DNA of 34,377 nucleotides from Candidatus Hermodarchaeota archaeon (GTDB lineage: Archaea; Asgardarchaeota; Lokiarchaeia; Sigyniarchaeales; SOKP01): assembly GCA_048885525.1 (NCBI GenBank), contig JBHLLP010000036.1, forward strand, positions 1 to 34,377, given 5' to 3'. Positions 28,119 to 31,738 of the stretch are shown piece after piece. The translations under genes and the position numbers were made by a program. Every line of letters starts with the position of its first letter. The first letter of the stretch is position 1. The notes under the pieces were generated by a model that saw only the letters and a program-made list of their open reading frames with translations, was not told the DNA's origin and did no database searches.

Positions 28119-28919
28119 TTAAAAAAATTCACTTAATCTTTTTTGATTGGAAAATTTACGATAAGGTAAACCAAATTTCTTTTTTAACTCATTAACAGAT
28201 TCGGGAGCAAAACCTTGAAAGTGATTATTTACTATAATGAAGATTTCATATACATTAGGTATTTTATTTATATCTTGAATACCCATATAGAAACTATTTA
28301 AAGCTTTCTTTTGATGTCTTTGAATTCTGTTAAAAACAGTTAGTTTTCTATCTCCAATTAATCTGATATAATAAAATTTTTGATTTTGCATATAGTATGG
28401 AGTTAGTCCCGGCATATAGGTCGTTCCAAGTATTTTCTGATTACCATCAGTAAATTCGATGAGAATTTTAGGATTGAACCATGAATTATCTCGCAATTCA
28501 ATAATATATTTATATTCTAGGGGAATTTTATTTAGTAATAGCTTTAATTTTTGAACATTATTTTCTGAGTATCGAAACCAAGGAGGGAATTGTAATAAAA
28601 AAGCCTCAATCTTTGGTTTCAAATGTTTTAATTTTGAAAAAAAATTGATAATATTTGATTCTAAATGAGGATCCTCCAGATGATGAGTTATTTGTTGCCA
28701 TACTTTCACAATAAAGCGAAAATTTTCTGGCACATGATGTTTCCAATTAATTACTATATCCTCAGCAGGTAAATTATAGAATGTTGAATTTATCTCAACG
28801 AAATTGAAGAATTTTGAGAAGTATTCCAATTGCTGGGATTTATATAACTTTTTAGGATAAAAAGGACCAATCCAATCTTTATAATCCCAGCCAGCAGTTC
28901 CAACAGTTATTTTAACCAT
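28119..28919 (-). CDS. DUF72 (YecE/UPF0759) family protein
   Basis: GTAGWDYKDW.GPFYP, VEINSTFY, ITH, LLQFPPWF, ELRDNSW, YIRLIG, NNHFQGFA. Confidence 0.92.
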   Translation of the reverse strand: MVKITVGTAGWDYKDWIGPFYPKKLYKSQQLEYFSKFFNFVEINSTFYNLPAEDIVINWKHHVPENFRFIVKVWQQITHHLEDPHLESNIINFFSKLKHLKPKIEAFLLQFPPWFRYSENNVQKLKLLLNKIPLEYKYIIELRDNSWFNPKILIEFTDGNQKILGTTYMPGLTPYYMQNQKFYYIRLIGDRKLTVFNRIQRHQKKALNSFYMGIQDINKIPNVYEIFIIVNNHFQGFAPESVNELKKKFGLPYRKFSNQKRLSEFF

Positions 28920-29048
28920 TTGAACGGTTTAGGAAATATTATGATATTTTAATGATTCAATATTTTCTTAAACTGAAATAATTAATTTTTATACATAATT
29001 ATTTTCAATTTAAATTATAAGAATAAAACGATTACATGGTGAAACATT

Positions 29049-29759
29049 ATTAGTATTGATTGGGTTAAAGTGGAAGAAAAACCGGAAAAGAAACTATCCG
29101 TTGAAGGAAAAATATTATTGGAATTCCAAGCTAAAATAAAAAACTTAGAACAGAAATTAGAGAATACTCATAAACGATTAGAAAAAATAACAAATGAGTT
29201 AATTATAACAAAGACCAAGTTAGCTGGTTGTGAAAAAAGCCTTACAGAACTTACAGAAAGAAGATCTTCTGCCAGAAAATCTTTGGATGAAGTGAAACAA
29301 GAAAAATTACAGATTGATATTGAACTTACTAAAGTAACATCCGAAAAAACAAATTTAGAAGAGAAGTTTGATGAGGCAATGAAAAAAATTACACAACTAG
29401 AACAACAATTAAATCTTAAAGTTGAAAAATCATCAGATTTTGAGCAGAAACTATTAGATAAAGATAACGTACTTCAAGAAAAAGAAGAAGAGTTATTAAT
29501 TAAAGTAAAAGAACTTTTAAAAAAAAATGAAGAAATCCAGAATCTTAAGAGTGAAATTGAGGAAATAAAGAAAAAATTAAATGATGAGATAAAATTGAAT
29601 GATCAACAAGTTAAAAAATTTAAAGCATTTGAAGCTCAAATGTCTGAAGTTATAAATGCTACAAAAATAGTTGAAAAAATTAAAAAGATAATGGAAACAA
29701 AAGGCTTCTTATCTGACAAGGAACTTGAGCTTTTATTAAAGGAAAAAGAAGATTTATGA
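29049..29759 (+). CDS. Coiled-coil protein, paralog 1 (inferred ATT start 29049; first canonical start GTG 29070)
   Basis: Near-continuous heptads; N-terminal SIDWVK..KPEKKLSVEGK and C-terminal KGFLSDKE shared with the downstream paralog. Confidence 0.8.
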   Translation: MSIDWVKVEEKPEKKLSVEGKILLEFQAKIKNLEQKLENTHKRLEKITNELIITKTKLAGCEKSLTELTERRSSARKSLDEVKQEKLQIDIELTKVTSEKTNLEEKFDEAMKKITQLEQQLNLKVEKSSDFEQKLLDKDNVLQEKEEELLIKVKELLKKNEEIQNLKSEIEEIKKKLNDEIKLNDQQVKKFKAFEAQMSEVINATKIVEKIKKIMETKGFLSDKELELLLKEKEDL

Positions 29760-29890
29760 TTGTTAATCACTCAAGTGATCAATTCAAAATCAAATTTTTT
29801 AATGCAAAATTTATAAATAATCAATTTTAAAGACTTAAATATAAGCAAAATAAAAAAAAATTTTTAAAAATATAATAAGGTGGAAGTGAA

Positions 29891-30622
29891 ATTTCAATCG
29901 ATTGGGCTAAAGCCGAAATGAAACCAGATAAGAAGCTATCTGTTGAAGGAAAAGTATTATTGGATCTTAGATCTAAAATAAATAATTTAGAAAATCAAGT
30001 AAGTCAAAAAACCAAAGATTTAGAAAAAACTTTAGATGAGTTAAAAGCAACTAAAGAAAATCTCACCGAAACTGAGAAAAAGTTAACAACATTAAATAAG
30101 AGTTTTTCTACATCAAGTAAGGATTTTGAGAGAATAAAGGAAGAGAAGCTGTATGCAGATGCAGAGCTCAATAAATTGAGAACAGAAAAATCAAATTTGG
30201 AAACTAAATTAGCTGAATCCAGTTCTAAGGTTACAGAATTAGAAAATAAATTGAAAGAGTCCTCTATAAAAGTTGAGAGCTTAGAATCGGAAAAAAATGA
30301 TATTAAAAATCAGTTGGAAAAAGAAAAGGAAGAATTAAAAGAAAAAGTACAACAAAGAGTAAATGAAATCGAGGATCTTAAAAAAAATTTACAAAAAGAG
30401 ACTTCAGATAAATATGTAGAAATGGAGACTCTTAAAGATACTTTAAGCGCAAAAAAAGTTGAGATGAATGCTTTAAAGCAAAAAATTACTGCACTTGAAG
30501 ATACAATTTCCGAAGCTAAAGGGGCACCAAAACTCATTGAAAGCATAAAAGATATTATGATTACAAAGGGATTTTTATCAGATAGAGAGTTTGATGCCCT
30601 ATTAGAAAATAAAGAAATTTAG
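29891..30622 (+). CDS. Coiled-coil protein, paralog 2 (inferred ATT start 29891; first canonical start ATG 29918)
   Basis: Near-continuous heptads; SIDWAK..KPDKKLSVEGK and KGFLSDRE. Confidence 0.8.
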   Translation: MSIDWAKAEMKPDKKLSVEGKVLLDLRSKINNLENQVSQKTKDLEKTLDELKATKENLTETEKKLTTLNKSFSTSSKDFERIKEEKLYADAELNKLRTEKSNLETKLAESSSKVTELENKLKESSIKVESLESEKNDIKNQLEKEKEELKEKVQQRVNEIEDLKKNLQKETSDKYVEMETLKDTLSAKKVEMNALKQKITALEDTISEAKGAPKLIESIKDIMITKGFLSDREFDALLENKEI

Positions 30623-30646: not shown

Positions 30647-31738
30647 ATGGTAAAATTAATTTGGGAAAAAAAAGATAGTGTTTCTAAACCAGAAGATATA
30701 GAAAAATATACTCCTAATTTTTTTAAAGCTTTCGAACATCATTCATCTAGTGATATTGAAAAACTAATTGAGTTTAAAAATTGTCAAAACTGGGTTAACA
30801 AATTATTTTGGGGAAATAATTTAGATGTTTTATATTTTTTATTAAAAAATTTTGAAGATAAAATTAATTTAATATATATTGACCCTCCATTCTTTTCTGG
30901 AACAAATTACCAAATTAAAATTAAGGAAGATGACAAATTCTATGACTCTATAGCATATTATGATCATTGGAATAATGATTTAAGCTCTTATTTACAAATG
31001 CTATATGAAAGAATATCATTAATCAAACAAATTCTCTCAAAAAATGGGTTATTTTTTATCCATTCAGATTGGCATGCTAATCACTACATACGATTAATTC
31101 TAGATGAAATTTTTGGAGAGAATAGATTTGTTAATGAAATTGTATGGTATTATTATAATAAGTATTCGGCTGGAAAGAAAAATCTTCCAAGAGCTCATGA
31201 TACGATTTTAGTATATTCTAATTCTAGTAATTACACTTTTAATGAATTAAGAATCCCTCGTAAAAAGCCAAGAAAGCAACTGATGAGAATAAATGTAGAG
31301 GGGGTACTGAAGAATTTAAAAGATAAAAATGGACATGTTAAATATCGAATAGTAAGAGATAAAAAATTAGATGATGTCTGGAAAATACCTTGTTTGCAAC
31401 CTGCCTCAAAAGAATGGACCGGGTTTCCTACGCAGAAACATCATAAATTGTTAGAAAGAATTATTAAATTAGGCTCAAATGAAGGAGACTTGATTGCAGA
31501 TTTTTTTTGTGGATCTGGAACGTCATTATTGACAGCTGAAAAATTAAAGCGAAGATGGATTGGATCTGATATTTCAGAATATTCAATATATTTGACAAAA
31601 AATAGGATTTTAAACCACCAAAATGCCGTAAAACAATTTTATCCATTTGAAATTCTCACAAATCTTGATACAGAGAAAAAAAATATTATTGATTCGGGAT
31701 TTTTTCAAAAAGAAATTTCAATTAACAGGAAAAAATAA
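30647..31738 (+). CDS. Site-specific DNA amino-methyltransferase (beta class, N6_N4_Mtase, Mod-like)
   Basis: Motif IV IYIDPPF precedes FPTQK and motif I DFFCGSGT. Confidence 0.92.
   Translation: MVKLIWEKKDSVSKPEDIEKYTPNFFKAFEHHSSSDIEKLIEFKNCQNWVNKLFWGNNLDVLYFLLKNFEDKINLIYIDPPFFSGTNYQIKIKEDDKFYDSIAYYDHWNNDLSSYLQMLYERISLIKQILSKNGLFFIHSDWHANHYIRLILDEIFGENRFVNEIVWYYYNKYSAGKKNLPRAHDTILVYSNSSNYTFNELRIPRKKPRKQLMRINVEGVLKNLKDKNGHVKYRIVRDKKLDDVWKIPCLQPASKEWTGFPTQKHHKLLERIIKLGSNEGDLIADFFCGSGTSLLTAEKLKRRWIGSDISEYSIYLTKNRILNHQNAVKQFYPFEILTNLDTEKKNIIDSGFFQKEISINRKK

Follow-up and report, generated by a model that had tools for sequence, protein, structure and literature searches.

Asgard archaea, the closest known relatives of eukaryotes, have an actin system that is being actively studied; to our knowledge, what organises that system in the cell is largely unknown. 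Here we describe two adjacent genes, A and B, of a Candidatus Hermodarchaeota archaeon (assembly GCA_048885525.1). They lie in a window of 34,377 nucleotides, the whole stretch of DNA that was analysed (contig JBHLLP010000036.1, positions 1 to 34,377), and encode coiled-coil proteins with a conserved head, a long rod, and a conserved tail. A third gene of the same genome, Z, located on contig C24, encodes the same head, again from an ATT start, and a rod, with a C-terminal CPxC...CxxC ribbon replacing the tail.

Two described Asgard systems come closest to these genes. A Zn domain has been described at the C terminus of the Loki gelsolin 2DGel, on unrelated multi-domain proteins, and in stand-alone form, and Akil et al. 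(2022, Commun Biol) proposed that it binds a cellular feature (PMC9433394). Z resembles the Loki Zn-domain proteins (PMC9433394; PDB 7WHG) in that it ends in a strictly C-terminal CxxC...CxxC ribbon with a long Tyr-bearing beta hairpin. A and B differ from them: the (CxxC)2 zinc ribbon with its Tyr-bearing hairpin is present in Z but absent from A and B, whose C-terminal tails are helical and free of Cys. The description of the Loki Zn-domain proteins (PMC9433394) does not cover the head-rod part. The second system is Thor 1DGelX, which combines a gelsolin domain with a predicted coiled-coil domain X (Akil et al. 2020, PNAS, PMC7444086). Three relatives of A and B (L098, P0131, and P0171, see below) likewise join a gelsolin-type domain to a coiled coil in Asgard archaea, yet, compared by description only, the order is reversed, with the head-rod part first and the gelsolin domain last in our family. 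A and B carry no gelsolin domain, and a gelsolin repeat was absent from A, B, and Z alike.

Our comparison revealed a head-rod family in which one head and one rod are joined to three types of end, two of which tie the family to the actin-regulator set. Literature searches on Asgard coiled-coil or intermediate-filament-like proteins, and on ATT starts in Loki, returned no description of this family in the library searched; the Zn domain and the gelsolins are already published. The two genes and their parts are as follows:

29049..29759, + strand: gene A, 236 aa, ATT start, stop codon at 29757-29759; head-rod-tail coiled-coil protein
29049..29123, + strand: A head, ISIDWVKVEEKPEKKLSVEGKILLE; head profile E 2.8e-22
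29277..29336, + strand: A mid-rod motif, K.S.D.VK.EKL..D.EL.K, common to B; from the alignment of 35 members
29646..29756, + strand: A tail, ..IVEKIKKIMETKGFLSDKELELLLKEKEDL; tail profile E 1.8e-21
29891..30622, + strand: gene B, 243 aa, ATT start, stop codon at 30620-30622; head-rod-tail coiled-coil protein
29891..29965, + strand: B head, ISIDWAKAEMKPDKKLSVEGKVLLD; head profile E 4.5e-24
30119..30178, + strand: B mid-rod motif, KDFERIKEEKLYADAELNKL; from the alignment of 35 members
30503..30619, + strand: B tail, ..GAPKLIESIKDIMITKGFLSDREFDALLENKEI; tail profile E 5.3e-24

A sequence-only reading of this DNA had proposed adjacent paralogs of 236 and 243 aa with ATT starts. The frames are open as proposed (from 29043 for A and 29879 for B) and lie 131 nt apart on the + strand. 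A and B are indeed paralogs, with 40% identity (BLASTP, E 9e-41) in an alignment that is gap-free up to about residue 125, in agreement with the same reading's statement that the rods are colinear over their first half. The two proteins share the head SIDWxKxExKPxKK..EGK, a continuous heptad rod, and the tail KGFLSDxE. In its longer form (SIDWxKxExKPxKK..EGK..LLD.R.K, residues 1-45) the N-terminal head is found in A, B, and Z, and the rod starts directly behind it in A and B. Across an alignment of 35 family members the head and the tail are the best-conserved regions, as had been predicted. Invariant residues are S2, W5, G20, L23, and L24 in the head and K226, G227, F228, D231, and E233 in the tail, and K77, E85, K86, L87, and E92 in the middle of the rod are nearly invariant. 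The family consensus reads K.F/LER.KEEKL.AD.E..KL in the mid-rod and I..IK.IM..KGFLSD.EF in the tail.

The rod has the hallmarks of an uninterrupted coiled coil. Apolar residues follow a strong 3.5-residue period (power 12-24, versus ~1 expected), the heptad register runs almost unbroken from residue ~16 to ~210, and within residues 21-210 Pro is absent and Gly occurs at most once (Gly60 in A). Charged residues make up ~42% of A and B, and there is one cysteine in A and none in B. AlphaFold2, run with the 35-sequence alignment, predicted B to be a single helix over residues 12-226 (mean pLDDT 88); the tail then turns at GFLS and forms a short helix at 231-239 (pLDDT 74-79). The absence of an ATPase motif and of a transmembrane helix, also part of the sequence-only reading, holds: a Walker A motif (GxxxxGK[ST]) was sought in A and B and is missing, and a search for transmembrane helices found none, the longest stretch without a charged or amide residue being 4-6 residues. 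A and B were also considered as a membrane-remodelling polymer of the ESCRT-III/PspA/Vipp1 kind, on the grounds that A and B are helical proteins of ~240 aa with a short C-terminal helix that might be a binding motif. This is extremely improbable, as none of the 35 members matched the Snf7 or PspA Pfam models, the AlphaFold2 model is a single straight helix with no alpha1-alpha2 hairpin, and an amphipathic N-terminal helix is lacking.

No described family accounts for these proteins. Scans of A, B, and Z against Pfam, NCBIfam, and PADLOC returned nothing beyond sub-threshold coiled-coil noise. When the parts were scanned singly, the head gave no match, the tail nothing credible, and the ribbon generic zinc ribbons only; a search of the PDB with the tail profile found no match. 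The tail had been likened to SHOCT oligomerisation motifs. By eye, the A and B tails do follow a SHOCT-like pattern (hydrophobic-x2-hydrophobic-x3-G-h-h-S/T-x2-E-F), but the SHOCT model (PF09851) matched neither tail (hmmscan, E<=10), and a genome-wide search with it found six weak places, none in A or B. The SHOCT assignment was dropped.

We next consider how widely the family occurs. The genome contains exactly three head-bearing proteins, A, B, and Z (head profile E 4.0e-25 for Z), and the tail profile matched only A and B in it. Z proteins occur throughout the order and measure 275-394 aa, with a rod of variable length and a conserved C-terminal ribbon. The head profile found members in 68/68 other sampled genomes of the window's taxonomic family (f1), usually in three copies; in 7/7 genomes of the second family of the order (f2), in one copy each and always in the Z form; and in 2/2 genomes of two further families of the class (f5 and f6). 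All 77 of the 77 other genomes of these four families were thus positive, and 0 of 223 genomes in the remaining families of the phylum were. As sampled here, the head-rod family occurs in a single Asgard class (Lokiarchaeia-type) and nowhere else in the phylum. Among 1.84 billion representative proteins, the head profile matched 184 clusters. Among the 150 clusters listed, true members carry the head at or within a few residues of the N terminus of proteins of up to 469 aa, and the much longer matching proteins aligned solely to positions 25-44 of the profile, its coiled-coil part.

In a maximum-likelihood tree, Z is set apart from the tail-bearing genes (support 100/99), the upstream gene of genus g14 clusters with A (93/88), and a separate triplication occurred in genus g13. 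The tandem pair is therefore old: it is retained in two genera and predates their split. The sequence-only reading had asked for a profile survey of paired occurrence: the tandem pair was recovered in two genera, f2 has only Z, and genera g13 and g16 have arrays of up to three tail-bearing genes in other contexts. The best-supported account is that A and B are a duplicated tail-bearing branch derived from the Zn-domain form. In Z of genus g1 (e.g., L003:1360-1539, - strand), a GGFASDERI peptide just before the first CPMC resembles KGFLSDREF of A and B. We considered it as a relic of the origin of the tail; this is unsupported, as the tail profile found no match on Z at E<=1. Two other head-rod clusters, P0138 and P0126 (403-423 aa), have a further conserved C-terminal domain of ~100 residues without a Pfam match, with the pattern ..RFDGK.F......N..DINL.LN...QRWQLSW.....LIDRKTAERQARSIAK.GY..

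Four other proteins of the genome have C-terminal ribbons homologous to that of Z; among these proteins is a two-repeat gelsolin (Pfam gelsolin, E 4.4e-28). In a profile comparison of the Z ribbon with 2DGel-type ribbons, hhalign gave a probability of 97.6% and E 3.4e-12. The gelsolin matches PDB 7WHG (7whg_G) with E 4.7e-171 and is a close ortholog of Loki 2DGel, which places the genome near the Lokiarchaeum GC14_75 lineage. It lies in the region C25:7365-7505 (L052:655-1650) and has 332 aa, including a linker and a C-terminal Zn domain. The predicted structure of the Z ribbon has a long beta hairpin (residues 28-53, pLDDT ~90) bearing invariant Y40 and Y47, and Foldseek returned generic zinc ribbons only (TFIIS, RPB9, and Rpp21; best E 0.29).

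Zn-domain proteins are numerous in this genome: we count 7-9, including 2DGel. The Loki Zn domain forms the C terminus of seven further proteins (L045-L051, on C74, C25, C14, C11, C15, C59, and C21). They comprise a 238-aa coiled coil, two proteins with a coiled coil and a long proline-rich linker (299 and 162 aa), proteins of 275, 166, and 130 aa, and a stand-alone form of 66 aa; the proline-rich linkers are reminiscent of the PEPVQV linker in MKD1-2DGel. Many non-Loki Asgard families have a single stand-alone ribbon of 48-75 aa that is related to the Zn domain (E 1e-15 to 1e-18), for example L057:5639-5782, L058:5740-5895 (- strand), and L059:5971-6126 (- strand); in L058, a coiled-coil and proline-rich protein is encoded by the next gene. 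The Zn domain was stated not to be consistently found beyond Loki (PMC9433394); contrary to that statement, Zn-domain-related ribbons range more widely.

The third type of end is gelsolin-like. A 363-aa frame from another genome of the class (L098:927-2015, genome G316) and two metagenomic clusters, P0131 and P0171, each encode the head, the rod, and a C-terminal gelsolin-like domain. When the last 100 residues of L098 and P0131 were compared with the PDB (phmmer), the significant matches were all gelsolin, villin, CapG, and adseverin chains, with best E values of 1.7e-6 and 2e-5. The gelsolin call rests on these matches because the Pfam scores are sub-threshold; P0171 was assigned from a sub-threshold Pfam gelsolin match and from its resemblance to L098 in sequence. 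In P0131 the rod is separated from the gelsolin domain by an additional zinc ribbon. Two proteins of the same class, L092 and L093, have an N-terminal zinc ribbon followed by gelsolin repeats.

Taken together, these results lead us to favour, tentatively and with somewhat less than even confidence, a modular family of coiled-coil scaffolds or tethers tied to actin regulators, of which A and B would be a tail-bearing offshoot. A and B would be cytoplasmic alpha-helical coiled-coil rods ~30 nm long, most likely parallel dimers, either homodimeric or mixed. The invariant head (SIDW..KP.KK..EGK), always at the very N terminus, may attach to a single conserved partner or structure. The module at the C terminus is exchangeable: a Zn domain in Z, the presumed class-wide founder, a gelsolin-like domain in some lineages, and the helix-turn-helix KGFLSDxE in A and B. 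This module would hold or recruit a second partner, in a network that may include actin regulators because the gelsolin 2DGel carries the same Zn domain as Z. In the window's taxonomic family A and B would be maintained in tandem, and each would have a ribosome-binding site and probably a promoter to itself. For A and B themselves, we infer a link to actin from family membership and from the domain fusions of relatives only.

Several points weigh against this reading. A and B have neither a Zn domain nor a gelsolin domain. The gelsolin-like domains of P0171 and P0131 score below the Pfam threshold (14.5 and 13.6 bits versus 21). The Zn domain of Loki 2DGel failed to co-sediment with F-actin in vitro (PMC9433394). 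Finally, conserved ends are equally expected of an end-to-end polymer.

A more specific proposal makes the head the ligand of the Zn domain, or of lokiactin: Z would then self-associate in chains, head to ribbon, and A and B would cap these chains or bridge them to 2DGel-like proteins, positioning gelsolin-type regulators. Head-bearing genomes are rich in Zn-domain proteins, other Asgard families have a single stand-alone ribbon and no head, and both the head and the Zn domain sit strictly at chain termini. This is a correlation only, however, and stand-alone Zn domains are widespread without the head; we consider the proposal a long shot.

The sequence-only reading had instead seen a two-subunit structural polymer. 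In this alternative to the scaffold reading, A and B would be obligate heterodimers, joined end to end by head-tail contacts to build a cytoskeletal filament. The conservation of head and tail around a more variable rod would fit such a filament, as would a tandem pair older than the split of two genera, together with the independent three-gene arrays of other genera. So would the different properties of the two subunits: A is near-neutral (family pI ~7) and has 242 aa in 9/11 orthologs, and B is acidic (family pI ~5.2), with orthologs of 221-246 aa. To look for a preference between subunits, we scored the net attractive g-e' charge pairs of a parallel in-register dimer over residues 15-125 in 10 genomes, a crude measure that uses sequence only. 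The mean net scores were 3.2 for A-A, 7.4 for B-B, and 4.2 for A-B. A-B pairing was thus favoured no more than B-B, and the charge pairing gives no sign of the heterodimer preference that had been suggested.

Known filament-forming coiled coils offer a second comparison. A and B share with crescentin and intermediate filaments (PF19220, PF00038) a tripartite head-rod-tail layout, a long heptad rod, and the lack of a nucleotide-binding domain, and 13/35 members match the Filament or Rod_CreS models. These matches are sub-threshold only: Rod_CreS (PF19220) gave 25.9 and 19.2 bits against a cut-off of 100, and we rejected a crescentin or intermediate-filament assignment. A and B also differ from those proteins, as they have no segmented rod with linkers and their ~190-residue rod is not fixed in length in B and Z. 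The constant rod length and charge periodicity of crescentin and intermediate filaments were not found: rod length is constant only in A and varies by 25 residues in B and 119 in Z, and acidic and basic residues show neither the 28/3 (9.3)-residue period known from the rods of myosin and intermediate filaments nor one of 28 residues, and no strong period up to 40 residues. With tropomyosin, A and B share an unbroken two-stranded coiled coil and conserved ends that could overlap head to tail; they differ in that the length of B is not fixed and in that their ends are specific non-helical or helix-turn-helix modules. The tropomyosin model (PF00261) matched 5/35 members, all sub-threshold (best E 1.4e-4), there is no ~39-residue repeat, nor any long period up to 40 residues, and this assignment was rejected too.

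Beyond the conserved ends, nothing that we computed from the sequences supports polymerisation. What remains of the filament reading is that the head-rod-tail coiled coils are real and that the tandem pair is retained; the charge periodicity and the fixed rod length are missing. The reading is further weakened because Z with its Zn domain and the gelsolin-fused relatives exist, a context that the sequence-only reading did not have. Exchangeable C-terminal modules suit an adaptor better than a lattice subunit, and a third paralog with a Zn domain, together with the gelsolin fusions, favours the modular scaffold or tether over a self-sufficient two-subunit polymer. We therefore regard the filament as unlikely.

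The start and spacer elements of A and B are as follows:

29038..29042, + strand: GGTGA Shine-Dalgarno-like motif, 6 nt 5' of the ATT of A; orthologs have the same spacing, and so do other ATT- or ATA-started genes of this genome
29797..29848, + strand: conserved A-B spacer block, with a TATA-like tttataaata at 29810-29819; from a spacer alignment of four genus members
29879..29883, + strand: GGTGG Shine-Dalgarno-like motif, 7 nt 5' of the ATT of B

The only canonical starts are a GTG at 29070 (A) and an ATG at 29918 (B), and both are downstream of head sequence: the peptide ISIDW.K.E is encoded upstream of them in both frames. Across 40 related genomes, most genus members have ATT as the codon preceding SIDW; ATC occurs once, the others have ATG or TTG, and AGGTGA always lies 6-7 nt 5' of this start codon. 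The codons for Ser2 (agt, agc, tca, and tcg) and Ile3 (att, atc, and ata) vary across orthologs; therefore, the head is conserved as protein and not as RNA. The in-frame ATG of B at 29918 is not conserved, with Glu or Ala in orthologs and ATA in one relative's contig. The ATT codons are identical in contigs from two further runs of the same study; no RNA run was listed as containing this DNA. A frameshift from short upstream ATG or GTG frames was rejected, as the offset differs (+1 for A, +2 for B). The ATT starts of the sequence-only reading are thus real, marked by protein-level selection on the head, a ribosome-binding-site motif 6-7 nt upstream, and orthologs that start with ATG, TTG, ATT, or ATC.

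Nor are ATT starts peculiar to A and B in this genome. Across the genome we took open frames of 130 codons or more and counted, at their 5' ends, the codons that follow GGTG[AG] at a distance of 6 nt. There were 11 ATT, 11 ATA, 8 ATG, 5 TTG, and 3 ATC; other AT-only codons were rare at these positions (0-2 each). The Pfam domains of a Ras-like GTPase, a rubrerythrin, a HIT protein, and CorA are encoded only given an upstream ATT-type start, and the P-loop of the Ras-like GTPase precedes its first canonical start. Examples of ATT or ATA starts are L075 (C12:31531), L076 (C47:24321), L077 (C24:11874-12392, - strand), and L078 (C22:45611-46690, - strand). The spacer block between A and B is nearly invariant across the four aligned genus members and, with its TATA-like element, is probably the promoter of B itself. 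A hairpin just 3' of the A stop codon was no better than in shuffled sequences (z -0.49).

The pair is flanked by two genes:

28119..28919, - strand: DUF72 gene, divergent; Pfam PF01904 E 1.5e-47; syntenic with the pair in two genera (tblastn)
30647..31738, + strand: N4/N6 DNA methyltransferase, 24 nt after B; Pfam PF01555 E 1.2e-46; PADLOC MTase_II E 4.9e-62

The order DUF72 (divergent), A, B, methyltransferase is kept across the genus (20 loci). The methyltransferase is an ordinary beta-class N4/N6 enzyme with no nuclease or restriction gene beside it. Its position 24 nt after B, with synteny in the genus, raised the possibility that A and B are a DNA- or chromosome-related coiled coil, an SMC-arm-like accessory that works with the methyltransferase, and weak matches to the coiled-coil arms of SMC, Rad50, JetC, and LmuB point the same way. 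These matches, however, cover arm regions only and lie far under the cut-offs (25-40 bits for the SMC, Rad50, and JetC ATPases, with cut-offs above 500), and with no Walker A motif the assignment to such ATPases was rejected. Genus g14 has the same gene order, but a 432-aa membrane gene is inserted between B and the methyltransferase; because of this insertion a functional link between A/B and the methyltransferase is unlikely. The tail-bearing arrays of g13 and g16 lie elsewhere, and the neighbours of Z are different again. On balance, a DNA-related function is very improbable.

Z always adjoins a tandem pair of paralogous membrane-protein genes whose products carry a hexapeptide-repeat (left-handed beta-helix) domain at the C terminus; in f2 these genes share the strand of Z, and in f1 they are divergent from it. 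Loci with this arrangement include L089:7293-8909 (C24 of this genome), L086:7646-9336, L088:7961-9525, L090:7441-9058, and L091:4442-6015, and in f1 a gene for a 533-aa metallophosphoesterase comes next.

For gene discovery, the head-rod family is easily missed because its ATT starts make gene finders truncate the head: standard tools cut the conserved head off, and public annotations begin at internal Leu or Met codons (e.g., P0008 and P0009). For the biology of the class, the family, found class-wide, combines a constant N-terminal head with a rod whose length can be tuned and with C-terminal modules that can be exchanged. Its members are concrete candidates for placing or connecting actin regulators, and the orphan Zn domain gains a set of candidate partners. 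If a network of heads with Zn domains or lokiactin were true, the family would be a lineage-specific organiser of the Asgard actin cytoskeleton that has no eukaryotic homolog.

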